Below are positions 6,853-40,180 of a stretch of DNA of 64,000 bases, in pieces. Each line of letters opens with the position of its first letter. The stretch's first letter is position 1. The DNA is from a virus. Its lineage: Duplodnaviria; Caudoviricetes. The stretch covers positions 64,001 through 128,000 of IMG/VR virus record IMGVR_UViG_3300025924_000017. The stretch is one strand, 5' to 3'. The translations under genes and the position numbers were made by a program. A model generated the notes under the pieces. It was not told the DNA's origin. It did no database searches and saw only the letters and a program-made list of their open reading frames with translations.

Positions 6853-7695
6853 TTGTCCCTTTATCACCTATACGAATACGACCCCGACCTCCACAAAACC
6901 GCCAACGAAGTAGCTGGCTGCGTGCGTGAGTTCGGTGAGGCCGGTCTGGAATCATCCGCGATCAAGGCACTTGCGGATGCCTACCTCGATCTTCTCGAAA
7001 AGCGCGGACTGCCGCCGAAGCTCTTCATCGAGCCTTCGATCCAGCTTTGCAGCGGGCGCTACTTCAACTTCCTCGACCCCGACGCGACGCCGGTCACACC
7101 GGAAGAGATCGCGCACGCACTCGGCAATGTCGCGCGCTGTGCCGGTCACACCATCTTCGATATGCCGGTCCCGGTAGGCCAGCACTGCGTCCTCGCATCA
7201 CGCGCGGCGCCCGCGCCGTTCAAGTTCGAGGCGTTGATGCACGACGCCGTCGAGGCCTTCACCGGCGATGTCACCACGCCGCTCAAGCAGTGCCTTGCCG
7301 ACTTCAAGCGCATCGAGAAATACTGCGAGCATTCCGTTCGCCGCCAATATCTTCTGCCGCTCGAAATGTCGCCCGAGGTGAAAGCCATCGACGTTCGTAT
7401 GGCCTGCACCGAGAAACGCGACTGCCTGCCGCCCGATCCGCCGGGCGAGGGCTGGGAAATGCTGGAAGGCATCGATCCCTACGAGATCATCATCACGCCG
7501 TGGAGCGCGAAGCAGGCGAAGACGCGTTGGCTCGCGGAGTTCAACGCACTCTGGCCCGAACACATGGCGCGCAACCTCCCGCGTGAGAGCGATCAGCGCG
7601 AAGACGCGGCTTGGCCTTCCTTCTCCATTGAAGCCCGCCGCGAACTGGCGACGCGCCTCGGCCTCTACGACCCCGTCACTCAGGATATTCCATAA
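6853..7695 (+). CDS. HD-domain phosphohydrolase (YfbR/YfdR-like 5'-deoxynucleotidase)
   Basis: IAHALGNVARCAGH, VGQHCVL, LMHDAVEAFTGDVTTPLK motifs. Confidence 0.85.
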   Translation: MSLYHLYEYDPDLHKTANEVAGCVREFGEAGLESSAIKALADAYLDLLEKRGLPPKLFIEPSIQLCSGRYFNFLDPDATPVTPEEIAHALGNVARCAGHTIFDMPVPVGQHCVLASRAAPAPFKFEALMHDAVEAFTGDVTTPLKQCLADFKRIEKYCEHSVRRQYLLPLEMSPEVKAIDVRMACTEKRDCLPPDPPGEGWEMLEGIDPYEIIITPWSAKQAKTRWLAEFNALWPEHMARNLPRESDQREDAAWPSFSIEARRELATRLGLYDPVTQDIP

Positions 7696-8759: not shown

Positions 8760-9116
8760 ATGCTTAGCAAACACCTCGTCGAACAAATCGCCCGCGTCTG
8801 TTACGCCGCTGCCACCACGTGGGACGAATCGCACGGCGCCGACCCCGCCCCGGCGTGGGAAGACGCCGACGAAGCGACCGTCCAGAGTCTCACCAAGCGC
8901 ATCAATGTGACGCTCGCCGATCCGCGCGGCGGCGACGGCACCTACCACAATACGTGGGTCGCCGAGATGCGTGAGAACGGCTGGTGCGCGGGCTCCGACT
9001 ACGACGCCAAGCGAAAGATCGACCCGCAGATGGTGCAGTTCCACATGCTGACGCCCTTTCAGAAAGCCCGCGAGCGCATGTTCCGCTCGATCATCATCGC
9101 ACTGAGCCGGGTCTGA
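8760..9116 (+). CDS. RyR-domain-like protein
   Basis: IARVCY...HNTWVAEMRENGW...K.DPQMVQFHMLTPFQKARERMF resembles RyR repeat. Confidence 0.65.
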   Translation: MLSKHLVEQIARVCYAAATTWDESHGADPAPAWEDADEATVQSLTKRINVTLADPRGGDGTYHNTWVAEMRENGWCAGSDYDAKRKIDPQMVQFHMLTPFQKARERMFRSIIIALSRV

Positions 9117-28347: not shown

Positions 28348-28611
28348 ATGACCGAACGCAAGCGCGTTTACGACCCGGACGGCCAACCTTTCGACGTACC
28401 CGTCGCGAAGGCAGCCGATCTCGTGTTGTATCATGGCTGGAGCCAAACGCCCCTCGATCCGGACGCCGTCCCGGCTGTGACGACCGTCGAGCCCGAACGA
28501 GGTACGCGCACCATTGACGAGAATTCGTCGATGGAAGATTGGCGTTACTCCGAAGTCGGGCGCGAAGAGGTCGATGAGCCGGGTCCCCGGCGTCGGAAAT
28601 CCAAGACCTAA
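28348..28611 (+). CDS. Hypothetical protein
   Basis: GAGG RBS; N-terminus resembles that of ORF 21430 (VY.PDG...A.DLV....WS). Confidence 0.7.
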   Translation: MTERKRVYDPDGQPFDVPVAKAADLVLYHGWSQTPLDPDAVPAVTTVEPERGTRTIDENSSMEDWRYSEVGREEVDEPGPRRRKSKT

Positions 28612-28617
28612 GGTTAC

Positions 28618-29145
28618 ATGCCCCGAACTCTGATCGTGAACGCGCTGGCAGGCCCCGGCGCGGGCAAGAGCACTTTGGCTTACGGCCTGATCGCTATGCT
28701 CAAGAGCAAGGGACATCGCGCCGAGTATGTCCCGGAGTTCGCGAAGGAGCTTACCTATCAGCGGGACTTCGTAGCCCTCGCCAATCAGCATGAGGTTACG
28801 AAGGAGCAGGACAGACGCCTGCGCGATCTACTGGGGCAAGTGGATATCGTCGTACACGACACTGCTTTGCCGTTGGCCCTTGTTTATTGCTCCGTGTCAT
28901 ATCGGCAGCCGTGGTTCGAACGCAGGGTGTGGGAGTTGTTCGACAGCTACCGCAATTTCAACGTCTTCGTGACGCGGAAGAAGCAATATCAGACGTACGG
29001 ACGTAAAGAGTCCGAAGCGGAAGCACATGAATTGGATGATCGCATCCTGCAACTGTTCGAAGGTCGTATCGATCTCACAGTGGAAGGGAACGATCAAGCA
29101 GTGGAGAGAGTTTACGCAGCGCTCATGGCGCTGCCGAAAGAGTAA
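28618..29145 (+). CDS. P-loop NTPase/nucleotide kinase (AAA_28/NadR-like)
   Basis: Walker A GPGAGKST, AEYVPEFAKEL, VVHDTALPL. Confidence 0.8.
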   Translation: MPRTLIVNALAGPGAGKSTLAYGLIAMLKSKGHRAEYVPEFAKELTYQRDFVALANQHEVTKEQDRRLRDLLGQVDIVVHDTALPLALVYCSVSYRQPWFERRVWELFDSYRNFNVFVTRKKQYQTYGRKESEAEAHELDDRILQLFEGRIDLTVEGNDQAVERVYAALMALPKE

Positions 29146-29148
29146 AGT

Positions 29149-29224
29149 ACCGGTTTAGCTCAGCGGTAGAGCGGTGGTCTCCAAAACCACGTCTGCGGAG
29201 GTTCGATCCCTTCAACCGGTGCCA
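29149..29224 (+). tRNA. tRNA-Trp(CCA)
   Basis: Full cloverleaf, loop CTCCAAA, encoded CCA. Confidence 0.9.
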
Positions 29225-29339
29225 GATTGCGAGTGTGTGGGGACGCACAGAGTCGTGCCTCGCCGGGACGACGGCCAGAAATGGATCACGAGTGCACGAG
29301 CGGGCTGATACCGCCACGTTGCTCCGGCCTCGCAAAGCT

Positions 29340-29414
29340 ATCGGTGTAGCTCAGTGGTAGAGCGGCGGCTTCCAATCCCGCGCGTCGGTGGTTCGATTCC
29401 ATCCACCTTTGCCA
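29340..29414 (+). tRNA. tRNA-Trp(CCA)-like with defective acceptor stem
   Basis: Normal D, anticodon (TTCCAAT) and T arms; two acceptor mismatches; CCA end. Confidence 0.55.
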
Positions 29415-29502
29415 ACTTGACGGCCCGTGAAAACGGTGACCGCCGCCCCGGGGGCAACCCCTCGAAGTACAAGAGACACGTATAGTCTCCGGGGAGAAAT
29501 AC

Positions 29503-29576
29503 GCGGGTCTGGTCTAGTGGCTGGGCCTCGGAGTGCCACTCCGATGAAGTCGGTTCGATCCCGGCGACCCGCACCA
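29503..29576 (+). tRNA. tRNA-Gly(GCC)
   Basis: Cloverleaf, loop GTGCCAC, CCA. Confidence 0.85.
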
Positions 29577-29580
29577 AATT

Positions 29581-29657
29581 GCGGCTGTCATTGATAATAG
29601 GCAGTCAGCCAGCCTTCCAAGCTGGAAGTACCGGATCGTCCCCGGTCAGCCGCTCCA
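29581..29657 (+). tRNA. tRNA-Gly(TCC)
   Basis: Loop CTTCCAA, T loop ATCGTCC, CCA. Confidence 0.8.
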
Positions 29658-29856
29658 TTGTGTGCCGGTGTCTCTTGCTTCGGCGCGTGCGGTCTAGCCG
29701 ATCTGCACGGCCCTATGTTACGCACCGCTCCCTGCCCATCCACGCTCCGCAAGGCTTTACGGCGGTCGGTGTGGAATGGGTTCGCTGGAGGGGAGGCGCT
29801 GGACGGCCCAGCAGGGGAGGCGTGGGCAACGTCAGCCGCAAAATCTTCGAGGATCG

Positions 29857-30495
29857 ATGTCACACTACCCCAACTTCGGTATTCCTGCCGTCTACGTCGA
29901 TCCAAGCATCGTCAGCTTCACGGCGACACCGGCGCTCGCCGAGTTGGGCAGCACCGTCGATAGCGTTGTCCTCCGCTGGGACATCGCGAAGCAGCCGCTC
30001 TCGCTAATCGTTGACGGCGCAACGCTACCGCTGAACACACTACTCGTCACCAAAGAAGGCCCATTCACGACCAACCAGTCTTGGTCGATGAAAGCAGGCG
30101 ACGCCGAAGAGACGTTGACCGCGAAGACGACTCTTCAATTCGTCAACAAGCTCTACTCCGGTTTTGTCACCAGCGCGCCGACCAACAGCGCCGGTATTCT
30201 TGCGCTCGAAAACAGCACACTCAGCACCACACGCCAGTCGTCCGCGCAGATTGGCGCGCCAGCCGGTAAAGTTTGGTGCTACGCATATCCGAAGCGTCTC
30301 GGCACTGTGAAGATCGCGCGCGAAATTCCGAGCGGCGTGTGGGTGCCGACGACGTTGACCCAGAGCATGGTGTCCGGTACCGACTACACTGTCAGCGTCG
30401 TGTCATTCACGAATGCCTCCGGTTATACCGAGGATTATAACGTCGTGACCTTCAGCAATCCGCAGCCTGACAACACCGTGCTGACCTTCGGTTAG
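29857..30495 (+). CDS. Virion-like beta protein inside tRNA region
   Basis: ATG 29857; C-terminal half resembles C-terminus of ORF 54285. Confidence 0.7.
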   Translation: MSHYPNFGIPAVYVDPSIVSFTATPALAELGSTVDSVVLRWDIAKQPLSLIVDGATLPLNTLLVTKEGPFTTNQSWSMKAGDAEETLTAKTTLQFVNKLYSGFVTSAPTNSAGILALENSTLSTTRQSSAQIGAPAGKVWCYAYPKRLGTVKIAREIPSGVWVPTTLTQSMVSGTDYTVSVVSFTNASGYTEDYNVVTFSNPQPDNTVLTFG

Positions 30496-30505
30496 CACAT
30501 AATCG

Positions 30506-30532
30506 TTGACAATACCGCCGCGATGTGCGACA
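30506..30532 (+). promoter_or_regulatory. Promoter-like motif before leader 1
   Basis: TTGACAATACCGCCGCGATGTGCGACA. Confidence 0.6.
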
Positions 30533-30540
30533 ACCCCAAT

Positions 30541-30627
30541 ATGACGACTGTTCTTACCACGTCTGTCCTTCTTTCTCCCCGTGAGCTTGAACGCTCGACG
30601 GGTCGAGATATGCACGTCGTCGCCTAA
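30541..30627 (+). CDS. Putative leader peptide 1 (MTTVLTTSVLLSPRELERSTGRDMHVVA)
   Basis: 28-aa ORF between promoter motif and Glu/Asp tRNAs; stop lies in loop of a long hairpin. Confidence 0.55.
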   Translation: MTTVLTTSVLLSPRELERSTGRDMHVVA

Positions 30628-30669
30628 ACGGCACGACGTAAACTCCGCCCGTCCGAACTCAGCTTCTAT

Positions 30670-30745
30670 CCGGGCATCTTACTATCAGCGAAGTGGACGG
30701 GCTTTCAACCCGTAGAGCCGGGGGCAGCACCCGGTGTCCGGACCA
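30670..30745 (+). tRNA. tRNA-Glu(TTC)
   Basis: Loop CTTTCAA; T loop GGCAGCA; CCA. Confidence 0.8.
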
Positions 30746-30746
30746 T

Positions 30747-30822
30747 GCAAGATTCGTCTAGCGGTCTAGGATACTGGAACCTCACTCCAGTGACATCGGT
30801 TCAAATCCGTTATCTTGCGCCA
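30747..30822 (+). tRNA. tRNA-Glu(CTC)
   Basis: Loop ACCTCAC; TTCAAAT T loop; CCA. Confidence 0.8.
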
Positions 30823-30863
30823 AGCTGATCTCGATCCACCATCATCCGTACACTGAATAACTC

Positions 30864-30940
30864 GGGCGTGTAGCCGTCTGGTTGACGGCACCGGCTTGTC
30901 AAGCCGCCAGAGGCGAGTTCAATTCTCGTCACGCCCGCCA
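30864..30940 (+). tRNA. tRNA-Asp(GTC)
   Basis: Loop TTGTCAA; G73; CCA. Confidence 0.85.
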
Positions 30941-30941
30941 C

Positions 30942-31016
30942 GGTCTGTTCGTCTACCAGCTAGGATACTCGCCTGTCACGCGGGAGGAACGGGGGCAGCA
31001 CCCGTACAGATCGCCA
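30942..31016 (+). tRNA. tRNA-Asp(GTC)
   Basis: Loop CTGTCAC; T loop GGCAGCA; CCA. Confidence 0.85.
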
Positions 31017-31018
31017 CC

Positions 31019-31044
31019 TGTCATGGAAATTATGTTTCATGACA
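31019..31044. promoter_or_regulatory. 26-bp imperfect palindrome (operator-like)
   Basis: TGTCATGGAAATTATGTTTCATGACA. Confidence 0.5.
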
Positions 31045-31128
31045 CGGCCGTAACGTCGCAATTCTTGACTATGATGTCGCAAAGCGCGACAATTCTTGCT
31101 TCCCACAAATTTCCATCGGACTACGACA

Positions 31129-31332
31129 GTGGCGCAAGGCAAGAAGAACTTCATCCAAAAGGCGATCCCCAAGTCCCATCGCGGCGACCTTCACAAGGCG
31201 CTGGGCATTCCCAAGGGCAACATCATCCCGCACGACGTGCTTGAGGCAGCGGCGAAGCGGAAGGGCAAGGTCGGCGAGGAAGCGCGGTTAGCGCTCACCC
31301 TCGAAGGCATGCACCCCAGCGCGAAGAAGTAA
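31129..31332 (+). CDS. Small basic phage protein
   Basis: KNFIQKAI...GDLHKALGIP.G..IP...LEAAAKRKGKVGEEARLALTL pattern. Confidence 0.7.
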   Translation: MAQGKKNFIQKAIPKSHRGDLHKALGIPKGNIIPHDVLEAAAKRKGKVGEEARLALTLEGMHPSAKK

Positions 31333-31335
31333 GCT

Positions 31336-31509
31336 GTGAAGCACCAGAAGACCAAGGCGCCATCGCAGCGCCACCCGCAGGCCAAGAGCCTTCAGAATCT
31401 CCACGGCGCCAACGCGCCCGGCGCCGCATCGGCACAGATGCTTGTCGGCGGCCAGCAGGTTTCCCCAACCGATCCCGGCGTACAGGCGTGCGCAATGACC
31501 GGTAACTGA
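31336..31509 (+). CDS. Small hypothetical protein
   Basis: GTG start after upstream stop. Confidence 0.4.
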   Translation: MKHQKTKAPSQRHPQAKSLQNLHGANAPGAASAQMLVGGQQVSPTDPGVQACAMTGN

Positions 31510-31597
31510 ACATACCTTTCACAGAGGGCATGAGTGTAGGGCCGAAGCAGCGATGCTTCGGCCCTAAACTTTTTCTTGACCACTTTGTTTTGAATTG

Positions 31598-31624
31598 TTG
31601 ACTCGTTGTTCGTAATATGAGACA
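31598..31624 (+). promoter_or_regulatory. Promoter-like motif before leader 2
   Basis: TTGACTCGTTGTTCGTAATATGAGACA. Confidence 0.6.
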
Positions 31625-31669
31625 TACATCCCACACGGTGCTCATTCCGAGCGCCACGAAGGTTTGAAA

Positions 31670-31765
31670 ATGTTCGCAGTGCTTAAATCCAAGCCGAGTA
31701 CACATCTGGCATCCGCCAGCGTGCTGTCGCTCGCCTTGTCGCCTGCGACCACGCCAGCTATCTAA
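31670..31765 (+). CDS. Putative leader peptide 2 (MFAVLKSKPSTHLASASVLSLALSPATTPAI)
   Basis: 31-aa ORF; 26 of 30 post-Met codons are Pro/Thr/Lys/Leu/His/Ala/Ser, the amino acids of the downstream tRNAs. Confidence 0.75.
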   Translation: MFAVLKSKPSTHLASASVLSLALSPATTPAI

Positions 31766-31866
31766 AGCCGCGTCCGCGCGGCTCACGAGCCGCGCTCCAC
31801 CTTCTGAACTCCCCACACCCAGATCAGATCGCAGAGTTCGGCTCCTAAACAGGAGAACGAATACGT

Positions 31867-31942
31867 CTGCGTATAGCTTAGCTTGGTAGAGTACGACCCT
31901 CGGACGGTTGGGGCGGAGGTTCAAATCCTCCTACGCAGACCA
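31867..31942 (+). tRNA. tRNA-Pro(CGG)
   Basis: Loop CTCGGAC; CCA. Confidence 0.9.
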
Positions 31943-32010
31943 AGTTTACGGATCACGTGCGGAGGTTCAAATCCTCCTACGCAGACCAAGTTTACGGATC
32001 ACGTGCGGAG
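31913..32010 (+). repeat. 46-bp tandem duplication of tRNA-Pro 3' end
   Basis: GCGGAGGTTCAAATCCTCCTACGCAGACCAAGTTTACGGATCACGT x2 plus GCGGAG. Confidence 0.9.
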
Positions 32011-32034
32011 ATTCGCACTGAGACGATCTGAATT

Positions 32035-32123
32035 CAGAGTGTCGGGTAGCTTGGCTGATCTCGCCCGGTTTGGGGCCGGGAGTCGAAAGACACACGTTGG
32101 TTCGAATCCAACCACTCTGACCA
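32035..32123 (+). tRNA. tRNA-Pro(TGG), long variable arm
   Basis: Loop TTTGGGG; variable arm with GTC-GAAA-GAC; CCA. Confidence 0.85.
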
Positions 32124-32131
32124 TTTTTAAT

Positions 32132-32206
32132 CAGGCTTTAGCTCAGCAGGAGAGCGCCCGCTCGGGAAGCGGGAGGACGCTGTGGCAGTGACAGCAAGCC
32201 TGACCA
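32132..32206 (+). tRNA. tRNA-Pro(GGG)
   Basis: Loop TCGGGAA; T loop GGCAGTG; CCA. Confidence 0.85.
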
Positions 32207-32281
32207 GTTTCGTGCGGTGTCTGAGCGCTACAAATATCGGGAGACAGAAAAGCGAGACTTCCCGAGCCGCACTTCGAATTC

Positions 32282-32363
32282 GCCGGTTTGGCTCAGCAGC
32301 GACAGCAGCAGTTTTGTAAACTGCCATTCCACATCGGGGGTGCGAGTCCCTCAACCGGCACCA
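32282..32363 (+). tRNA. tRNA-Thr(TGT)
   Basis: Loop TTTGTAA; T loop TGCGAGT; CCA. Confidence 0.8.
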
Positions 32364-32370
32364 TCATCAT

Positions 32371-32445
32371 GCCCTCGAATAAGAGAAAGCGCTTTGCGTC
32401 ATTGGTAGTGACGAGAGGAACGGGCAGGTCGTTCCGGGGGCACCA
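32371..32445 (+). tRNA. tRNA-Thr(GGT)
   Basis: Loop TTGGTAG; T loop GGCAGGT; weak D arm; CCA. Confidence 0.7.
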
Positions 32446-32452
32446 ACAACAC

Positions 32453-32527
32453 GCCGACTAAATTGAGATAGCGTAAGACCGGACTCGTAATCTGGTAGGG
32501 GTGGCGCAAGTCCACCAGTCGGCACCA
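32453..32527 (+). tRNA. tRNA-Thr(CGT)
   Basis: Loop CTCGTAA; CCA. Confidence 0.8.
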
Positions 32528-32542
32528 AATCAAATCGAATAT

Positions 32543-32632
32543 GCGCTGGTGACCCGAGTAGCGAAGGGCTGAGACTCTTAATCTCATGATCTAAAAAATC
32601 CATCGCGGGTGCGAGTCCCGCCCAGCACACCA
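32543..32632 (+). tRNA. tRNA-Lys(CTT), long variable region
   Basis: Loop CTCTTAA; CCA. Confidence 0.8.
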
Positions 32633-32637
32633 ATTGA

Positions 32638-32731
32638 GCGCCGGTGACCCGAGAAGCGAAGGGCCGGGACTTTTAATCCTGTTTGGTGTTCAACACCATC
32701 GTCGTGGGTGCGAGTCCCACTCGGCACACCA
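32638..32731 (+). tRNA. tRNA-Lys(TTT), long variable arm
   Basis: Loop CTTTTAA; TGGTG-TTCAA-CACCA arm; CCA. Confidence 0.8.
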
Positions 32732-32741
32732 GTTTCAGTTT

Positions 32742-32825
32742 GGCCCTATGGCGTAATAGTAGGCGCGCTGGCTTCAGATACCAGTGTCTTTGGACGTGGG
32801 GGTGCAAGTCCCTCTAGGGCTACCA
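32742..32825 (+). tRNA. tRNA-Leu(CAG)
   Basis: Loop TTCAGAT; type II; A73. Confidence 0.85.
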
Positions 32826-32830
32826 AATTT

Positions 32831-32915
32831 GCTCCCGTGGCGGAACGGTAGACGCGCTCCCCTTAAAGCGGAGTGACCTCGTGTCGTGGGAGTTCGATTC
32901 TCTCCGGGAGTACCA
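32831..32915 (+). tRNA. tRNA-Leu(TAA)
   Basis: Loop CTTAAAG; type II. Confidence 0.85.
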
Positions 32916-32924
32916 GAAGAATTT

Positions 32925-33011
32925 GTCCGGCTGATCGGAATCAGTAGACGTGCTCGGCTCAAACCCGAGTGCCCTTGTGGCGTAGAGGTGCAAGTCCTCT
33001 GCCGGACACCA
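32925..33011 (+). tRNA. tRNA-Leu(CAA)
   Basis: Loop CTCAAAC; type II. Confidence 0.9.
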
Positions 33012-33015
33012 GTTT

Positions 33016-33099
33016 GCTCTTGTGGCGTAAAGGTAGGCGCGTTGGTTCGAGAAGCCAATGGGTAAAACCGTGGGGGTTCAAGTCCCTCCAAGAGCACCA
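33016..33099 (+). tRNA. tRNA-Leu(GAG)
   Basis: Loop TCGAGAA; type II. Confidence 0.9.
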
Positions 33100-33219
33100 A
33101 GTTGAGTGATCGCAAGCGTTAGGACCCTGTGCTGCTCCACGATGCACTGACAAGGTCTCACGGCGATTGAGAGAGGGCATCTCACGGCGGGTCCGCTCCG
33201 CACCACTCAAACAAAACAT

Positions 33220-33295
33220 GCTGACGTAGGACCTGAGGCTGGGTCGCCTGATTGTGAGTCAGGAGTGAGTGGTTCGATTCCGCACGTCAGTACCA
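33220..33295 (+). tRNA. tRNA-His(GTG), A73 and no G-1
   Basis: Loop TTGTGAG; ends CGTCAGT-A-CCA. Confidence 0.85.
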
Positions 33296-33304
33296 ATTCA
33301 ATTC

Positions 33305-33377
33305 GGGGTGTCCGCGAGGTCCGGACTTGATCTTTGCAAGATCGAAGCGGTGGGTGCGAGACCCACACACTCCGCCA
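33305..33377 (+). tRNA. tRNA-Ala(TGC), short D arm
   Basis: Loop TTTGCAA; G3:U70. Confidence 0.75.
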
Positions 33378-33384
33378 AGTATAT

Positions 33385-33460
33385 GGGCCTGTAGCTCAGT
33401 TGGGAGAGCGCCTGATTTGCACTCAGGATGTCGGGGGTTCAAATCCTCTCAGGTCCACCA
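33385..33460 (+). tRNA. tRNA-Ala(TGC)
   Basis: Canonical cloverleaf; G3:U70. Confidence 0.95.
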
Positions 33461-33466
33461 ACATAC

Positions 33467-33553
33467 GGATGCTGAACCCGGCGCGGGCTGGGACTCGCCT
33501 CGAAAGCGATGGGAGCCTCACGGCTTGGAGATCGAGCCTTCCGGCATCCGCCA
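33467..33553 (+). tRNA. tRNA-Ser(CGA)
   Basis: Loop CTCGAAA; long variable arm; G73. Confidence 0.85.
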
Positions 33554-33569
33554 ATCAAATGCGAAGAAG

Positions 33570-33863
33570 ATGAAGAAGATCGGAAAGAGATATCTGGAGC
33601 GAGCGCAATACTACCGACGTCTCGCGCACGCTACGTGTCCGACCTTGGACTTCTCCGATGAGGCGCTGCGCCGCTGCTACGAATGGGAGAGCCACGGTGT
33701 GCGCTGTAGCGATCCAGACAACGGATACATGACAGGCAAGTCGCTCGTGAACCTGAATGTCGCAATGTGGAAGGAAGACATCGTTCGCGGAACGCTTTTT
33801 CTGTTCGAGTTGCGTGAGGACCCTGACATTCCAGAATGGGTCTTGAAGAATTTCGGAGAGTGA
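33570..33863 (+). CDS. Hypothetical protein inside tRNA array
   Basis: MKKIGKRY...; stop overlaps 5' end of next tRNA. Confidence 0.6.
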   Translation: MKKIGKRYLERAQYYRRLAHATCPTLDFSDEALRRCYEWESHGVRCSDPDNGYMTGKSLVNLNVAMWKEDIVRGTLFLFELREDPDIPEWVLKNFGE

Positions 33864-33946
33864 ACCGAGCAGGGATGCCGGGCGCGTTTGCTAAACGATG
33901 CGGAGGCCGAAAGGCTTTTTCGGATCAAGACCGACGCTCTCCTCCA
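33855..33946 (+). tRNA. tRNA-Ser(GCT)
   Basis: Loop TTGCTAA; long variable arm; CCA. Confidence 0.8.
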
Positions 33947-33951
33947 GTCAT

Positions 33952-34043
33952 GGATGCTTGGCCGAGTGGCTTAAGGCGGCGGATTTGAAATCCGCAGGAC
34001 CTCACGCGAGGTTCCGTCCGTTCAAATCGGACAGCATCCTCCA
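33952..34043 (+). tRNA. tRNA-Ser(TGA)
   Basis: Loop TTTGAAA; long variable arm. Confidence 0.9.
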
Positions 34044-34113
34044 ATCTAGGGCCTAGCGCAGCGCAACGTCGCGGGAAGGGTGAGAGGGTAGCGTCGCGGC
34101 TACCCGCGTAATT

Positions 34114-34205
34114 GGAGAGTGAACCGGACACGCGTGCCGGGCCTGCTTGGAAAGCAACGCGGACGGTGCAAGCCGTTTGGGGCGCAAGTCCTCCGCTCTC
34201 CGCCA
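34114..34205 (+). tRNA. tRNA-Ser(GGA)
   Basis: Loop TTGGAAA; long variable arm. Confidence 0.8.
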
Positions 34206-34283
34206 AATCGCTTGACACGATCCACGTCAGTGTGCCATAGAATGCGACATCGCGCTTCTGCACCGGCGCGTCGGCCTAACGGC

Positions 34284-34383
34284 TAGGCCGGAGGGTTCGT
34301 CGAAGGGCGGAGAGGAGCAGGCTACGAGCCTGCGACCACATTGGTCTGAAAATCCGCCGCCCTGCGATCAACCCTCCGGCTAT
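34284..34383 (+). ncRNA. Candidate structured ncRNA
   Basis: 11-bp closing stem GCCGGAGGGTT/AACCCTCCGGC enclosing three further helices; TTGACA at 34212. Confidence 0.45.
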
Positions 34384-34398
34384 CAATTTTGGAAGTCG

Positions 34399-34611
34399 AT
34401 GTCACCTGAAGCTCTCACTCTGATCGCTAAGCTCCACGAAGCCCGCGACAAGCAAAACGCACCCCACGCGATCTACGCAACCGATAGGCCTGAGATGCTG
34501 GCGCTCGTTGCCGAACTCGTTGAACACGGTTATCTCGTCAAGCGTGTGCGTCGGGAAGTCGATCCTTTCGATTCCTACATGACAACTGACAAGAGCCTCC
34601 CAAACGCATGA
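34399..34611 (+). CDS. Hypothetical protein
   Basis: ORF track. Confidence 0.6.
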   Translation: MSPEALTLIAKLHEARDKQNAPHAIYATDRPEMLALVAELVEHGYLVKRVRREVDPFDSYMTTDKSLPNA

Positions 34612-34805
34612 GGCGGCGCAAGTCTTTTCCAGAACTCGAAGCGCGCGAGCGCGCGATCCGTGACAGCGACCACGCGCGGATAGCTCGGGGTTTGGAGCCG
34701 ATCCGCTGCCCACGATGCGGAGAGAACGCTTCGCACTTCTTCCCACCCTGTTTCGGCGACCCCGGCTTTTGGACGTGCGTCGGTGTCATGGTACCAGCCA
34801 CATGA
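34608..34805 (+). CDS. Small zinc-finger-like protein
   Basis: CPRCG...CFG...WTC; ATGA coupling. Confidence 0.55.
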   Translation: MRRRKSFPELEARERAIRDSDHARIARGLEPIRCPRCGENASHFFPPCFGDPGFWTCVGVMVPAT

Positions 34806-35023
34806 CGTGCAGCACCGCCAGACGCTACCAATACCTGAACGTCATCACCGACACCGGCGAGCGCAAGGTCTTGCGTGTCTCCGACGCCACCATGCGCCGC
34901 ATCACCGAAGCCGCCCACAAGGCTAAGAACCCGACGATCTGGCAGCGGATCGTGCGGGCGTTTAAGCGCGTCTTCGCATCTGTCGCGGATCGTGTCACAG
35001 CAGGGTTGACAAAACGACGCTGA
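34802..35023 (+). CDS. Hypothetical protein
   Basis: ATGA coupling. Confidence 0.55.
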   Translation: MTCSTARRYQYLNVITDTGERKVLRVSDATMRRITEAAHKAKNPTIWQRIVRAFKRVFASVADRVTAGLTKRR

Positions 35024-35062
35024 GCGGATATGCCGGGTCTTCGCCATGTGAAGGACCCGACA

Positions 35063-36904
35063 ATGCTTGACGCCCAGACCCTCGACCTCTTCAAGGTCAT
35101 TGTTCTCGACGAGTTTGCTGTGCCGCCGGAAGGGCTGAGCGCAAAGCCGTATCTGGAAGACCTCCAGCAGGGCTTCGTCACCAATTTCATCCCGACGCCC
35201 CTTCAGAGGGCCGCACTCTGCAAGGCGTTCAAGCCGCTTCCGCTGGTGACGCTGTTTTCGGTCGCCGAGCGCCGGGCGCCCGACATCACTCCGATGTCGC
35301 TGATCATGACGCAGCTTCTCCACTACATCGAGGTCTACGGCCTCGACCAGCCGGGCTTGTTCAATCTCGAAGTCAAGCAGGGTAGCGTCGTGGTTGTCGC
35401 CAACGTTCGCGGCGTGACGGTCGAGGAACTTGGCGACATGGTCCGCGCCCTGATCTACGCGAACGCGCCGGTCCGCAAGATCGAGGACGTGATCGAACTG
35501 ATCAAGTTCCACAACATTCCTTATGACCTCGCACTCGTGAAGAACAACGAAGCGCGCATCCGCTTGTACCGGGACGGCGATCAGTTTGCGTCCGGAGACG
35601 ACGCTGTCCGCTACATCGTCTTCAAGACGACCGGCGACTCGCTCCTGATCAAGTCCCCGGAAGTCGTCGCAGCCGTGAAGTCCGGCGAGCGACAGGTTTC
35701 GTTGCACTTCCTGATGGCGCACGAGACGGTCTTGGCGCAGGTGTTCAATCGCCACAAGCGCATCATCATGGCGTTGAAGAACCGGCGCACGGCACAGGCG
35801 ATCAACCGCATTTCGCGCTTCTCGAAGACGAAGCACGTCCCGCTCCGTCCGGCGCTCAACAAGACTTTCATCGCCCGCGCGCTCGGCGATCTGCCGTTCG
35901 ACTACGAGGACGCGCTGGAGGTCATCTCCCTGCGCGACAAGTTCAAGTACCTGAACCTGCTCGAATGGCGCCGCTTGCAGAATACCGATGACGTGTTCAT
36001 CATCCGCAACGGCCGCGCGCATTTGGAGCCGGATCGTAAGGTCTACCCCACCAAAGACATCACGGCGCTCATTATGAGTGTTGCGGACTCGATTGAGGCT
36101 GATCTGCGACATCTGCAAGGCAAGTCGATCCTGCTCGATCCCAATGTCGATTATGGTCTGCCGACCTCCCAGAAGCAGATGCTCGGCAGCCTGCCGTTCG
36201 GCACCACGATCTCGGTCGGTAACGGGAACATCTCGTCCGGCATCTATTGGGAGAACCGTTGGGGCGCGACCGATCTCGATCTGGCAGCCATCGACGAGTG
36301 GGGCGAACGCACCGGCTGGGGCGAGTTGTCCGGATTCGACAATAACAATCCGATCCTCTTCTCCGGCGACATCACGTCGGCACCTGAAGGCGCCATGGAG
36401 TTCATGACCTCGGCGACGACGGATTGTGAGCGCGTCTACGGACTGCTGGTGAACATCTTCAACGGGGGTAACGAGGCCGAATGCGAACTGCTCGTCGGCT
36501 CCCAGTTCGAAGGCAAGAACGGTCAGACGCGTTCCGGGCGATCCGCGAAGTGGATCAAGTCGCCGGTGATCCGGGAGAAGGTGAAGCTCACCTCTCGCGA
36601 GACGATCCTCGGCTTCGTACGGAACGGGAAGTTCGTCGTGTTCGCCCCGCGCCTGTCGAACCGCCGTGTGTCCGGCGGCGAGATCACGCGCCGTTTGATC
36701 GCGAAGGGCATGGCGCCGGTCTGGACGATCAGCAAGCTGCTCGCCGTTGCGGGAATCAAGTACGACACGACACCCGTTGACGGTGTTGTCTACGATTACG
36801 ATCTCTCGTACGCGTCGTTTTGTGTTGACAAAATGGAGCGCATGTTGTTCAATCCTCAGCAGGTTACGCCGCAAAAGACGTTCCTTACAGAAACAGCGGC
36901 CTAA
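35063..36904 (+). CDS. TerD-domain-containing stress/RNA-associated protein (putative)
   Basis: QLLHYIEVYG N-terminal motif; GIYWEN...DLDLAA...W...ILFSGDITSAPEGAMEF resembles TerD fold; AAGGA RBS. Confidence 0.6.
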   Translation: MLDAQTLDLFKVIVLDEFAVPPEGLSAKPYLEDLQQGFVTNFIPTPLQRAALCKAFKPLPLVTLFSVAERRAPDITPMSLIMTQLLHYIEVYGLDQPGLFNLEVKQGSVVVVANVRGVTVEELGDMVRALIYANAPVRKIEDVIELIKFHNIPYDLALVKNNEARIRLYRDGDQFASGDDAVRYIVFKTTGDSLLIKSPEVVAAVKSGERQVSLHFLMAHETVLAQVFNRHKRIIMALKNRRTAQAINRISRFSKTKHVPLRPALNKTFIARALGDLPFDYEDALEVISLRDKFKYLNLLEWRRLQNTDDVFIIRNGRAHLEPDRKVYPTKDITALIMSVADSIEADLRHLQGKSILLDPNVDYGLPTSQKQMLGSLPFGTTISVGNGNISSGIYWENRWGATDLDLAAIDEWGERTGWGELSGFDNNNPILFSGDITSAPEGAMEFMTSATTDCERVYGLLVNIFNGGNEAECELLVGSQFEGKNGQTRSGRSAKWIKSPVIREKVKLTSRETILGFVRNGKFVVFAPRLSNRRVSGGEITRRLIAKGMAPVWTISKLLAVAGIKYDTTPVDGVVYDYDLSYASFCVDKMERMLFNPQQVTPQKTFLTETAA

Positions 36905-36995
36905 AAAGCCGCTCCTAAAATACGTCTCGCGGTTTTCGATTTTGTTGCAAAGGGTGTTCCTTAAAAACCCTTCTATGGCAAACACACCCCGCAAC
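36869..36995 (+). ncRNA. Tandem pair of similar multi-branch RNA structures
   Basis: AGACGT/ACGTCT and GGGTGT/ACACCC stems each enclosing a TCCTTA..AAAC loop plus hairpin. Confidence 0.45.
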
Positions 36996-37007
36996 GCTCT
37001 CTGCGAG

Positions 37008-37040
37008 AGGCCATCCGAAAGGATGGCCTTTTGCATTTTG
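37008..37040 (+). terminator. Intrinsic terminator
   Basis: AGGCCATCC-GAAA-GGATGGCCT then T-rich run. Confidence 0.85.
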
Positions 37041-37044
37041 TTTC

Positions 37045-37071
37045 TTGACACGACTGCCGTGATATGAGACA
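37045..37071 (+). promoter_or_regulatory. Promoter-like motif before leader 3
   Basis: TTGACACGACTGCCGTGATATGAGACA. Confidence 0.6.
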
Positions 37072-37080
37072 ACCTTCTCC

Positions 37081-37179
37081 ATGAGCAAGACCTTTACCAA
37101 CGTGCAGCAAGTCGTCCGCCGGAATCGCTATATTCCGGGCGGGGCTTTCGCGCGTGTGGAGAAGGATCACGGGTTCTAA
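37081..37179 (+). CDS. Putative leader peptide 3 (MSKTFTNVQQVVRRNRYIPGGAFARVEKDHGF)
   Basis: 32-aa ORF; codons 7-18 all match downstream tRNAs; overlaps antiterminator strand. Confidence 0.8.
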   Translation: MSKTFTNVQQVVRRNRYIPGGAFARVEKDHGF

Positions 37180-37247
37180 ACCCAAAAGCTCTCCAAAGTT
37201 CTGCGAAAGGCCCGCCCGGTAAGCTCCGAGCGGGCCTTTTGCTTTTT
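37137..37247 (+). promoter_or_regulatory. Transcription attenuator (antiterminator/terminator)
   Basis: 37137-37151 GGGCGGGGCTTTCGC pairs (14/15) with 37203-37217, overlapping terminator AAAGGCCCGC/GCGGGCCTTT + T run. Confidence 0.8.
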
Positions 37248-37256
37248 GCCTTTCAC

Positions 37257-37342
37257 GCGGATGCGAACGAGAGGCGAGCGATTGACGGTCTGTAAAACCG
37301 TTGCCTATGGCTGAATGGGTTCAATTCCCATCATCCGCACCA
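37257..37342 (+). tRNA. tRNA-Tyr(GTA)
   Basis: Loop CTGTAAA; long variable arm. Confidence 0.9.
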
Positions 37343-37378
37343 AGGCAAAAACGAGAAGGTACGCAAGGAGAAGAATTT

Positions 37379-37455
37379 GCTTCGGTAGCTCAGTTGGTAA
37401 GAGCGCTGGCTTGAAATCCCAGAGGTCGATGCGTCGAGTGCATCCCGGAGCACCA
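37379..37455 (+). tRNA. tRNA-Phe(GAA)
   Basis: Loop TTGAAAT; T loop GTCGAGT. Confidence 0.85.
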
Positions 37456-37460
37456 TACAC

Positions 37461-37536
37461 AGTCCGTTAGCTCATTCAGGAGAGCGCTGGTGTCACATAC
37501 CAGAGGCGCACGGGGCAGAGCCGTGACGGACTACCA
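37461..37536 (+). tRNA. tRNA-Val(CAC)
   Basis: Loop GTCACAT; T loop GGCAGAG. Confidence 0.85.
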
Positions 37537-37540
37537 GCTT

Positions 37541-37616
37541 CCACCCGAGGCTGACTAGTGAGGCGGGCACCTGATTAGTGCCGTCAAGGTGAGTGCGATC
37601 CTCACCGGGTGGTCCA
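37541..37616 (+). tRNA. tRNA-Ile(GAT)
   Basis: Loop CTGATTA; T loop TGCGATC; atypical T37 and T73. Confidence 0.7.
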
Positions 37617-37654
37617 GTTTTCAGATCAGCGATGGAGATTCGTCGCTGGTTTTT

Positions 37655-37730
37655 AGTCCGATAGCTCATTCAGGAGAGCGCCGCTGTGACATGGCGGAGG
37701 TGCGCGGGGCAGAACCGCGTCGGACTACCA
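37655..37730 (+). tRNA. tRNA-Val(GAC)
   Basis: Loop GTGACAT; T loop GGCAGAA. Confidence 0.85.
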
Positions 37731-37736
37731 AATCAT

Positions 37737-37813
37737 TCTCCGTTAGCTGGTCGGTCTGGCCGCTGGGCTCTGAACCCGGAAAGAAGAACGTTCGAATCGT
37801 TCGCGGAGAGCCA
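37737..37813 (+). tRNA. tRNA-Gln(CTG)
   Basis: Loop CTCTGAA; U1:A72, G73. Confidence 0.85.
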
Positions 37814-37818
37814 AACAT

Positions 37819-37894
37819 TGCCCGTTAATTGCTAGGTGCGGTCGCCGGGTTTTGACCCCGGTAGGAAAAGGTTCGAATCCTTTGCGGGCATCCA
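37819..37894 (+). tRNA. tRNA-Gln(TTG)
   Basis: Loop TTTTGAC. Confidence 0.85.
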
Positions 37895-37900
37895 GAACAT

Positions 37901-37985
37901 TCCCTTCTGGCGGAACGAGTAGACGCGCTGCACTGTTAATGCAGTATCGAAAGATGTGCAGGGGCGGAGCCTGCGGAGGGAGCCA
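37901..37985 (+). tRNA. tRNA-Asn(GTT), type II-like body
   Basis: Loop CTGTTAA; Leu-like D arm GGCGGAACGAGTAGACGC; long variable arm; T loop GGCGGAG. Confidence 0.8.
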
Positions 37986-37994
37986 ATCAAATTT

Positions 37995-38070
37995 TGGTGT
38001 GTAGCTCAGTCGGCAGAGCGGCGGATTGTTAATCCGAAGGTCGCAGGATCGTACCCTGCCACGCCAGCCA
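37995..38070 (+). tRNA. tRNA-Asn(GTT)
   Basis: Loop TTGTTAA; G73. Confidence 0.85.
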
Positions 38071-38076
38071 AATTAT

Positions 38077-38158
38077 AGTCGCGAAGTGCTGAATGGAACG
38101 GAGGCAACGCACTACGAATGCGTAAACCCTGTGGGTTCGAGTCCCACCGCGACTACCA
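38077..38158 (+). tRNA. tRNA-Arg(ACG)
   Basis: Loop CTACGAA. Confidence 0.8.
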
Positions 38159-38165
38159 GTTTTGA

Positions 38166-38241
38166 CGTGCCGTCGCCTAAAGGTAAGGCCCTTCGCTCAT
38201 AACGACAGTGTATGTGAGTTCGATTCTCACCGGCACCACCA
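38166..38241 (+). tRNA. tRNA-Met(CAT)
   Basis: Loop CTCATAA; C1:C72 mismatch; weak anticodon stem. Confidence 0.7.
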
Positions 38242-38244
38242 AAT

Positions 38245-38327
38245 GGCCCCGTAGCTCAGCGGACAGAGCGCCGGTCTTCTAAGCCGGGAAATCAACGTCG
38301 GGGGTTCGACTCCCTCCGGGGCTTCCA
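38245..38327 (+). tRNA. tRNA-Arg(TCT)
   Basis: Loop CTTCTAA. Confidence 0.9.
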
Positions 38328-38333
38328 GATCAC

Positions 38334-38408
38334 AGCCGCGTAGCTCAACGGAAAGAGCGCCAGTTTCCGAAACTGAGGATCGGTGTTCGATTCACCGCGC
38401 GGCTACCA
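38334..38408 (+). tRNA. tRNA-Arg(CCG)
   Basis: Loop TTCCGAA. Confidence 0.9.
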
Positions 38409-38576
38409 GTTCCGCCCTGTCATCTTTCTTGTCGATAATGTCGTCGTTCTTGACGAATACTCACCTCTATCATAAAATGCGGCCCATCAAACATCGCTAC
38501 GTGCCGGGGGCTCGAATGCGGATCGTCAGGGCGCATTTTGTCGCGCCCCGAAGTCAAAGCACCAGAGGGTTGCGTA

Positions 38577-38906
38577 GTGGATATCAGCGACATCGAAACC
38601 GATACCGCCGACCGGCGGCGCGCTCGCGGCAAGAAGCCGTCGATCTTCAACTGGGAGATCAATTTCGGGCACGTGGCTATCGTGCTCTCACTTTTTCTGT
38701 CCGCAGCAGGCCTTTACGCGCACGATGAGGCGCGTATCTCGGTCATCGAGAGCCGGGTCGATGACCTGACCTCCCAAAATCTCCCGCCGCGCATGGCTGC
38801 CGCCGAGACGCAACTCCACGACATTCACGACAGCATGAAGGAGGTCACGAACCTCCTTGGTCAGATTCACAACGACCTGTCTCAGAAAGCGGATAAGCCA
38901 AAATAA
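38577..38906 (+). CDS. Single-TM coiled-coil protein
   Basis: EINFGHVAIVLSLFLSAAGLY TM then coiled coil; GTG start inferred. Confidence 0.65.
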   Translation: MDISDIETDTADRRRARGKKPSIFNWEINFGHVAIVLSLFLSAAGLYAHDEARISVIESRVDDLTSQNLPPRMAAAETQLHDIHDSMKEVTNLLGQIHNDLSQKADKPK

Positions 38907-39131
38907 TTACTTCATAACCGGCGTCATAAACTCCCGGCGTCCTGTTCATTCCGTGTTCATAATGTTGGAGATCAAGGCATTCGCGGACGAAAAGTCCGGA
39001 AAATAACATCCACTGTCGCCAAATTGGATATTGCACTTTACGGCGAATCCATGTCAGCAAGACGTTAAGCGGCAGAGCGGGACCAATGGGGTCGTTAGCC
39101 TGCGCGCCTTGTTCAGACGAGGAAAGCAAGA

Positions 39132-39347
39132 GTGCGTACAAGGAACGTTGAAGGGGAAAAGAAGGTTGCACCGGCCGCGAATTATTTTGCAGTCGATGAA
39201 ATTCATAAACGGCTCATTAGCCGTGCACACGAACTAGCGGAACTTTCGCTTCAACCTCTCACGCCGGAACTCGTCGGCGAAATGGAAGAAGCTTCCAAGC
39301 ACTTCAACACCGACCTCGCGGAACTCCGTTCGCGGCGCATCGTATAG
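39132..39347 (+). CDS. Hypothetical protein
   Basis: GAGG RBS, GTG start. Confidence 0.55.
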   Translation: MRTRNVEGEKKVAPAANYFAVDEIHKRLISRAHELAELSLQPLTPELVGEMEEASKHFNTDLAELRSRRIV

Positions 39348-39373
39348 CGAGGTTTCACATCAGGGGAGAGTAG

Positions 39374-40180
39374 GTGGATCAGCCTAACGAGTTTTTCGAG
39401 CAAGCATCTCCGCCACCCCGTCTCACCAAATCGCAAGCAAGAGCAGCGCGCCGGGCCGAAAAGGCTTCTACGGGTGGTTCCGGCGCGCCTCTTACAGCCA
39501 AGACCGACAATCAGCGCCGGTATATCGACCGCCTCAAGCGCGGCCAGAGTTTGTTCGCTATCGGACCAGCGGGAACCGGCAAAACCTACCTCCCTGCGCG
39601 GATCGCGGCGCGCAAGCTCCTCGACAAGCAACTCGACAAGTTCATCATCGTGCGCGCCACCGTGGAACCCAACAAGCGCCACGCGCTCGGTTTCAAACCC
39701 GGCAAGCAGGACGACAAGCTGGCGCCGTGGATGATCCCGGTGCTGGACGGCCTGCGCGCGGAGATGAGCGGCGTCGTCCTCGACAAGCTCAAGAACGAGA
39801 AGCGGATCGAGTTCGCGCCTTTCGAAAGTATGCGAGGCCGCACGTTCAACAACGCGATCCTTCTGATCGATGAGGCCCAGAATCTCACGACCGCCGACCT
39901 CAAACTGGTTTTGACGCGTATCGGCGAGGACTGTCAGGTGATCGTCACCGGGGATACCGAACAGACCGATATCCCGGATTCCGGCCTTGCGCGCGTCGTC
40001 GCGATGACGCGCCGTCACCAGATCGAGATGCCTGTGGTCGTCTTTGACGAGGATGATGTGGTGCGCAGCGCCATGACCAAGGCATGGGTCAAGGCATTTG
40101 CCGCAGAATTTGGCAGTACTGCCGCATTTCTTGACGACCCTCCGGCGTTCCTGCAAAATGGCCGCTTAGTTCCCCAGTAA
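39374..40180 (+). CDS. phoH: PhoH family ATPase
   Basis: KTDNQ, GPAGTGKT, GFKPG, MRGRTF, LIDEAQN, TGDTEQTD, DVVRS motifs. Confidence 0.95.
   Translation: MDQPNEFFEQASPPPRLTKSQARAARRAEKASTGGSGAPLTAKTDNQRRYIDRLKRGQSLFAIGPAGTGKTYLPARIAARKLLDKQLDKFIIVRATVEPNKRHALGFKPGKQDDKLAPWMIPVLDGLRAEMSGVVLDKLKNEKRIEFAPFESMRGRTFNNAILLIDEAQNLTTADLKLVLTRIGEDCQVIVTGDTEQTDIPDSGLARVVAMTRRHQIEMPVVVFDEDDVVRSAMTKAWVKAFAAEFGSTAAFLDDPPAFLQNGRLVPQ

Follow-up and report, generated by a model that had tools for sequence, protein, structure and literature searches.

A virus of the class Caudoviricetes, IMG/VR record IMGVR_UViG_3300025924_000017, carries several arrays of transfer RNA (tRNA) genes, and we have analysed the 64,000-nt stretch of one strand at positions 64,001 to 128,000 of this record, which is called the window below. 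A 31-codon open reading frame (ORF), leader 2, stands here ahead of a block of tRNA genes for seven amino acids (Pro, Thr, Lys, Leu, His, Ala and Ser), and we propose that it is a multivalent leader-peptide attenuator gating the transcription of this block by decoding speed. The attenuator is a prediction in which we infer translation, ribosome stalling and termination, and we assign it a probability of roughly 0.65. The phage probably makes the tRNAs of the block according to the speed with which ribosomes decode these codons. The logic of attenuation is well supported by structure prediction in the homologues of the phiCbK type, and would hold for the window by homology to them.

The original prediction had noticed that 26 of the 30 codons after the start match the seven amino acids of the downstream tRNAs, and our recount agrees, the exceptions being one F, two V and one I. 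The peptide and the codons listed for it are correct as well: both Lys codons (AAA and AAG), CCG, CCT and CCA for Pro, ACA, ACC and ACG for Thr, CAT for His, and five Leu, six Ser and six Ala codons. As leader 2 is the sole plus-strand ORF of at least 20 amino acids within the leader and the residue set is dictated by the genes downstream, multiple testing plays only a slight role. The enrichment, which had been put forward subject to a formal test, is significant against the small ORFs of the same genome, a single contig of 225,611 bp with 59% G+C. Among its 940 ORFs of 25–40 codons in six frames (mean in-set fraction 0.49, standard deviation 0.11) the leader ORF ranks first with a binomial P of 1.8e-5, and at least 26 in-set codons are reached by 62 out of 232,993 stop-free windows of 30 codons (2.7e-4). 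The codons of the leader touch 16 of the 18 anticodons of the block compared to 12.8 ± 1.3 expected when the peptide is kept fixed and synonymous codons are drawn from the phage's own codon usage (P = 0.017), and the three Pro, three Thr and two Lys codons each address different isoacceptors (P = 0.010).

The intrinsic terminator at the 5' side of the leader (Table 1) closes the upstream genes and thereby isolates the leader transcription unit, and the predicted promoter following it is of the sigma-70 type. Its 27-bp motif TTGAC-N13-15-TRTGNGACA has only three copies in the 225.6-kb genome (window positions 30506, 31598 and 37045), each of which stands ahead of one tRNA sub-array, and the TTGACA/-10 layout in front of all three leaders is also kept in relatives. 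The start codon ATG 31670 lies 37 nt downstream of the predicted transcription start and 7 nt behind a Shine-Dalgarno-like GAAGG (31658–31662). Elements of this kind are also found upstream of the homologous ORFs in relatives, and over this phage and its relatives the 5' untranslated region (UTR) of leader 2 containing them is 37–93 nt long.

The two mutually exclusive hairpins that had been proposed behind the stop codon proved to be real in our folds, and they extend into a longer chain that decides whether hairpin D forms. In helix 1:2 AGCCGCG (31766–31772) pairs with CGCGGCT (31777–31783), in the alternative helix 2:3 GCGCGGCT (31776–31783) pairs with AGCCGCGC (31788–31795), and in helix 3:4 GAGCCG (31787–31792) pairs with CGGCTC (31839–31844), the 5' side of hairpin D. 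For the RNA behind the ORF the combination of 1:2 and 3:4 (-34.6 kcal/mol) is nearly isoenergetic with that of 2:3 and D (-33.0 kcal/mol), and the full leader fold prefers the latter. Compared to shuffled sequences the fold stability corresponds to z = -3.2 for the part behind the ORF and z = -4.9 for the whole leader. The C-rich, G-poor tract described after the hairpins is borne out by its composition (18 C and 7 G in the 45 nt of 31796–31840); it is shorter than typical Rho utilization (rut) sites, and a C-rich spacer is located at the matching place in all lineages. Segment 1 begins at the base after the TAA, and a terminating ribosome would therefore cover it.

The following mechanism can be proposed. 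Transcription would start at the promoter at 31598–31626, and the RNA leader would encode a translated 31-codon peptide. With all seven aminoacyl-tRNAs plentiful, the ribosome would reach the TAA and cover segment 1, upon which segments 2 and 3 would pair and hairpin D (4:5) would form before tRNA-Pro as the 'off' state. With any of the seven being scarce, the ribosome would stall inside the ORF and helices 1:2 and then 3:4 would form, which would prevent hairpin D and let the RNA polymerase enter the tRNA genes as the 'on' state, and the outcome would be a negative feedback on the phage's own tRNA supply. Hairpin D is followed by ACGTCTGCG without a U tract and helix 2:3 by UCCACCUUCU, a poor U tract at best. 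As hairpin D has no U tract, the off step in this phage might be a weak or non-canonical intrinsic termination or an action of Rho/NusG on the C-rich spacer, or it might be lost.

The tRNA arrays of the window are syntenic with those of the Dolichocephalovirinae, and we examined 14 relatives, namely the Brevundimonas phages Gurke, Kikimora, Bajun, Bambus, Marchewka, Domovoi, Kabachok and Papperlapapp, CcrColossus and CcrPW, the Bertelyvirus members CcrBL9 and CcrSC, and phiCbK and CcrRogue. All 14 possess a homologous ORF, which is 39–45 codons long compared to 31 in the window, is 84–95% in-set and always stops 101–119 nt 5' of the first tRNA-Pro. The peptides can be aligned with a common core like LSHKLS...ALS.LA.AP.T, and those of the window and phiCbK have the MFA start in common. 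Frame, start codon and a length of 31–45 codons are kept across six divergent lineages with barely alignable nucleotides (49% mean column identity). The pairwise ratio of nonsynonymous to synonymous differences (pN/pS) of the leader ORF is 0.5–1.2, so the peptide sequence appears nearly free to change, unlike that of a conserved protein. Replacements remain inside the seven-residue set in 49 of 66 cases compared to a fraction of 0.47 expected from single-base neighbours (P = 6e-6, with pairs that are not fully independent). This comparison indicates that selection acts on the composition, frame and position of the leader ORF and not on its protein sequence. Conservation in relatives had been named as a check in the original prediction, and the observed pattern, with frame, position and composition kept while the sequence drifts, is the one expected of a leader peptide.

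Five of the homologues are annotated as hypothetical proteins (phiCbK gp083, Rogue gp083, Bajun 02440, CcrBL9 gp149 and CcrSC gp144), and those of Colossus, CcrPW, Gurke, Kikimora, Bambus, Marchewka, Domovoi, Kabachok and Papperlapapp are unannotated. phiCbK gp083 (JX100813, 49540–49677) matches PHROG 12742, a family of unknown function, at 4.8e-28, and the hidden Markov model of this family gave no match to the peptides of the window and of Gurke. The homology of the window peptide to the gp083 family follows from synteny, position and peptide alignment, and the homologous leaders resemble the window in the TTGAC promoter, the layout of hairpin, C-rich spacer and hairpin, and the order of the tRNAs. 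The records of Kabachok and Papperlapapp place a 'hypothetical protein' on the minus strand over the leader 2 ORF (loci L008 and L009, 1451–1603 in both), which is probably an antisense mis-call. CcrColossus and CcrPW carry about 200 nt of conserved, GC-rich and apparently non-coding sequence upstream of the leader 2 promoter (L010, 1700–2100; L011, 1950–2180), which bears its own TTGACT promoter-like site and may be a structured RNA.

The interval from the ORF to tRNA-Pro is built alike in the relatives: the stop codon is located in or close to the loop of a first hairpin, then come a long hairpin B and the C-rich spacer, and hairpin D is the last element. D consists of a GC-rich stem and a following U tract in phiCbK, in Rogue and in all homologues from Brevundimonas phages, and the GenBank record of phiCbK independently places rho-independent terminators from TransTermHP behind all three leader ORFs, in each case ahead of the tRNAs. 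The Colossus and Bertelyvirus homologues have a weak or no U tract and keep the whole architecture. All lineages have complementarity between the 5' arm of D and a section of the preceding hairpin B, with differing sequences, these being GGAGCCGC with GCGGCTCC in phiCbK, GGGGCC with GGCCCC in the Brevundimonas phages, GCACCCG with CGGGTGC in CcrBL9 and the 3' arm of B with CAGCAGACGCGG in Colossus. We also performed constrained minimum free energy (MFE) folding in which a ribosome footprint of 30 nt was forced to be single-stranded. For phiCbK and Domovoi a ribosome at the stop codon resulted in the terminator, and a ribosome stalled in the ORF or absent resulted in the antiterminator.

Leader 2 is accompanied by two sister ORFs, leader 1 and leader 3, in front of other tRNA arrays (Table 1). 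The core of leader 3, such as YRQNVQNIRVVRF, consists of 12–15 consecutive Y, F, V, I, Q, N or R residues, all from its own tRNA set, and the run of 12 in the window is unique among 339,662 genome windows. Pooled over the lineages, 89% of leader 2 belongs to set 2 and 63% of leader 3 to set 3, and the share of Glu and Asp amounts to 14% in leader 1, 1% in leader 2 and 5% in leader 3. The ATG of leaders 1 and 3 is located 35–39 nt from the TTGAC start, that is at the predicted +1, in the window phage and all relatives, and their mRNAs would be leaderless. In the window leader 3 (region 37045–37256) is followed by a canonical U-tailed terminator (37208–37250). Leader 1 ends 119 nt before tRNA-Glu in the window compared to 28–34 nt in the relatives, and no U-tailed terminator was seen in its region (30506–30746). 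We lean slightly towards a three-channel sensor of aminoacyl-tRNA supply in the phiCbK family, in which the Glu/Asp, the Pro/Thr/Lys/Leu/His/Ala/Ser and the Tyr/Phe/Val/Ile/Gln/Asn/Arg leaders would each gate their own sub-array and leader 2 of the window would be the seven-valent channel lacking a canonical intrinsic terminator. Such a phage would switch on exactly the tRNA set whose decoding has slowed, for example after host shut-off, upon a mismatch in codon usage or under anticodon-nuclease defences that cleave host tRNAs.

Several results weigh against leader 2 being an attenuator. A short ORF behind a promoter, codon enrichment and, in computed folds, mutually exclusive helices that can be masked are all found in the window, but a U-tailed intrinsic terminator between the ORF and the tRNA genes is lacking. 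The original prediction had already pointed out that a U-tailed terminator is lacking, so that any control would be Rho-dependent or structural. The sequence before tRNA-Pro indeed contains no U tract, and terminator prediction gives no site in 31575–31866; with the U tract a defining part of the classical attenuator is absent in this phage. The enrichment of rare codons in the leader 2 ORF is not significant (P = 0.12), low-complexity ORFs rich in A, S, T, P, L and K are the commonest kind in DNA of 59% GC, and the runner-up small ORFs of the genome reach an in-set fraction of 0.80. No clean switch was obtained from constrained MFE folding of Gurke, Bambus and Rogue, equilibrium folding of transcripts ending before the 3' arm did not separate the ribosome positions, and within the Brevundimonas group, whose sequences are too similar for such a comparison, 1 of 25 helix pairs was compensatory. 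The co-variation of leader content with the tRNA set is weak: in Bertelyvirus a Trp codon in the leader core goes along with a tRNA-Trp moved into the block, but Bambus and Marchewka, with a Trp codon in the leader tail and a block without tRNA-Trp, are a counter-example.

The main rival explanation is a relic attenuator of ancestral phiCbK-like function that has lost its U tract, so that the block is read through constitutively and the leader is translated without regulating anything. Alignment A1 matches hairpin D to the terminator stem of phiCbK, but besides lacking the U tract D has a weaker base (TTCG/CGAA vs GGCG/CGCC), and the missing terminator call also fits a relic. We nevertheless regard it as unlikely, as the extreme composition and the spread over isoacceptors are retained and the two-state energy balance is preserved, which would not be expected after a loss of function, and as the architecture persists in Colossus and Bertelyvirus, where U tracts are weak or absent, which suggests that a non-canonical stop is at work. 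The chain of helices could also act after transcription and influence processing or stability, if its alternative folds expose or hide an RNase E/P site or the acceptor strand at the 5' end of the first tRNA. In MFE folds CGCAGA of the leader (31830–31835) indeed pairs with TCTGCG, the last nucleotide before tRNA-Pro plus its first five, a pairing of the same kind is found in Colossus and CcrPW, and hairpin D ends only 4 nt before the tRNA. Such a switch is quite improbable, however, because it would mainly affect the first tRNA and not a block of 15–19 genes and because bona fide terminators are present at the homologous place in relatives.

It is very improbable that leader 2 encodes a small protein with a function of its own whose composition is ordinary low complexity, even if five records annotate a coding sequence and phiCbK gp083 belongs to a PHROG family. 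A pN/pS near 1, replacements confined to the seven-residue set, the constant distance to the tRNA with terminators in between and two sister ORFs mirroring two other tRNA sets all speak against it, and the window peptide has no match in Pfam or PHROG. The least probable explanation is a chance ORF in the ordinary structured 5' leader of a tRNA operon, in which the RNA and not the frame would be conserved. GC-rich DNA does provide many open frames rich in A, S, L, P and T, and the minus strand over leader 2 is also open for 209 codons, with such an ORF being annotated in Kabachok and Papperlapapp. This minus-strand frame runs through a tRNA gene, though, and a chance ORF would hardly rank first among 940 or keep its frame, start and length in six lineages at such low nucleotide identity. 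The attenuator at leader 2 is the best explanation in our view, and the reading of the original prediction is supported by the enrichment, the conservation pattern and the exclusive hairpins.

Table 1: Features of leader 2, its tRNA block and the two sister leaders (window positions).
Feature	Position	Strand	Description
Intrinsic terminator	31537..31575	+	13-bp stem 31537-31566 followed by a T run, tail AACTTTTTCT
Promoter (predicted)	31598..31626	+	-35 TTGACT 31598-31603; 17-nt spacer; -10-like GACATA 31621-31626
5' UTR	31627..31669	+	from promoter geometry; transcription start predicted near 31633
Leader 2 ORF	31670..31765	+	31 codons plus TAA; ATG 31670; TAA 31763-31765
Switch segments 1, 2 and 3	31766..31795	+	1 (31766-31772), 2 (31776-31783), 3 (31787-31795); helices 1:2 and 2:3 mutually exclusive
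C-rich, G-poor spacer	31796..31835	+	contains CTGAACTCCCC; loop of the 3:4 helix; possible Rho entry site
Hairpin D (segments 4 and 5)	31836..31862	+	GTTCG-G-CTCCT / AAAC / AGGAG-AA-CGAAT
tRNA block	31867..34043	+	Pro x3, Thr x2-3, Lys x2, Leu x4, His, Ala x2, Ser x1-4
95-codon ORF in the tRNA block	33576-33863	+	between tRNA-Ala and the Ser tRNAs; no Pfam or PHROG match
Leader 1 ORF	30541-30627		before tRNA-Glu/Asp; conserved across the subfamily; keeps E-x-E...G.D motif
Leader 3 ORF	37081-37179		before the Tyr/Phe/Val/Ile/Gln/Asn/Arg array; conserved across the subfamily

The block behind leader 2 starts with tRNA-Pro(CGG) at 31867 and had been described as consisting of 19 tRNAs. The set of seven amino acids stands, but the number does so only in part, with 15 of the 19 supported by ARAGORN or Rfam, one found at a relaxed threshold only and three seen by eye. 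ARAGORN identifies 13 tRNAs with default settings, Rfam adds Pro(GGG) at 32132–32203 and Thr(CGT) at 32453–32524, and Ser(GCT) at 33855–33946 is found only with the relaxed ARAGORN threshold; for Thr(GGT), Ser(GGA) and Ser(CGA) the likeness to tRNAs was judged by eye only and has no support from Rfam. Several tRNAs of the window phage have a poor or no score with both programs. An exact 46-bp tandem duplication (31917–31962 and 31963–32008, together window 31917–32008) copies the 3' part of tRNA-Pro(CGG) plus spacer and leaves a partial tRNA 3' half between Pro(CGG) and Pro(TGG). The tRNA-Lys genes, and in the window also Pro(TGG), are 87–94 nt long with a long extra arm (window 32035–32123 and 32543–32731), and the long extra arm of tRNA-Lys is common to phiCbK, Rogue, Colossus and Bertelyvirus (L014, 10140–10324; L012, 4027–4113).

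A test of co-variation that used the reported lack of Thr, His and Ala tRNAs in phiCbK was dropped, as ARAGORN finds unannotated genes in the gaps. Missing from the GenBank annotation are Ala(TGC) in phiCbK and Thr(GGT), His(GTG) and Ala(TGC) in Rogue (L014, 7000–14000, and L015), and within the 100 nt upstream of its tRNA-Phe phiCbK also has a tRNA resembling Tyr(GTA). The published lack of Thr, His and Ala tRNA species in phiCbK and Rogue may need to be revised.

The 95-codon ORF embedded in the block would be co-transcribed with the tRNAs, and small coding sequences are present at its place in Gurke (7223–7408) and Bambus (8798–8986, both in locus coordinates). Directly before the first tRNA (Trp) of the window a gene for an AAA_28 P-loop kinase-like protein is located (28618–29145), which in relatives is annotated as NadR-like or thymidylate kinase; Brevundimonas and Bertelyvirus phages likewise carry it directly ahead of their tRNA region. 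The Trp/Gly sub-array following this gene has neither a promoter motif nor a leader of its own. A DNA search with the leader for closer relatives gave no match, a search with the 624-aa neighbour protein identified one IMG/VR contig without tRNAs, and with the AAA_28 kinase-like neighbour as query IMG/VR, GTDB genomes and metagenomes yielded only distant loci whose tRNA layouts are unrelated.

Our literature search revealed nothing on leader-peptide or attenuation control of tRNA genes or operons, be it in phages or in cells, and a search for a transcriptome of phiCbK infection gave none. The phiCbK genome paper (Gill et al. 2012, PMC3556154) does not speak of leaders or of attenuation and reports tRNAs as the sole Rfam finding, and a regulatory role of the homologous leaders is described neither there nor in the sequence records.

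Phage tRNA genes are usually viewed as constitutive cargo that offsets codon bias or the loss of host tRNAs. If leader 2 is an attenuator, the phage would instead gauge the decoding speed and make its tRNAs on demand, block by block. This reading would also give a new meaning to the puzzling terminators that the phiCbK record annotates ahead of tRNA genes and to several 'hypothetical proteins', among them phiCbK gp083 and CcrBL9 gp149. As the leaders are present in cultured Caulobacter and Brevundimonas phages, the idea can be tested in the genetic model C. crescentus.

Multivalent attenuators are known from enterobacteria, where the ilvGMEDA leader responds to Ile, Leu and Val and the thr leader to Thr and Ile, with trpL, hisL, leuL and pheL as further examples of leader-peptide attenuators. 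Like leader 2 they have a promoter-proximal, codon-enriched short ORF, exclusive helices, the first of which can be covered by the translating ribosome, and a terminator hairpin before the regulated genes, although its counterpart in the window, hairpin D, lacks the U tract. They differ in regulating biosynthetic enzymes instead of phage tRNA genes. Furthermore, leader 2 samples seven amino acids by spread single codons, whereas the enterobacterial leaders sample one to three by tandem runs. The folding of leader 2 suggests five segments instead of four, and with this number the absence of translation would give read-through.

The tna operon shares with leader 2 the arrangement of a short ORF, tnaC, and a C-rich, G-poor spacer without an intrinsic terminator. 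However, tnaC stalls at its stop codon on free tryptophan and blocks the adjacent rut site, while the composition of leader 2 points to seven aminoacyl-tRNAs; the C-rich tract of leader 2 is only about 40 nt long and a role of Rho is a candidate here. T-box riboswitches are similar in being cis-acting leader RNAs that sense tRNA charging through a terminator/antiterminator switch, but they bind one uncharged tRNA directly and do not need translation. An Rfam cmscan search of 28500–39500 (E ≤ 1) found no T-box or other curated cis-regulatory match in the leader, and all matches were located in the tRNA arrays, where they comprise tRNAs and weak sub-threshold matches to YrlA, tmRNA and Plastid-ycf2.

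A leader-peptide attenuator considered for the E. coli tRNA-Phe genes is not borne out for pheV, whose tRNA begins about 8 nt downstream of the -10 element. In pheM-pheST, as proposed for leader 2, attenuation acts on a component of the translation apparatus and the charged tRNA is sensed via the decoding speed, but this system is cellular, responds to a single amino acid and controls the phenylalanyl-tRNA synthetase. If our reading of leader 2 is true, ribosome-mediated attenuation would extend from amino-acid and synthetase genes to the tRNA genes themselves.

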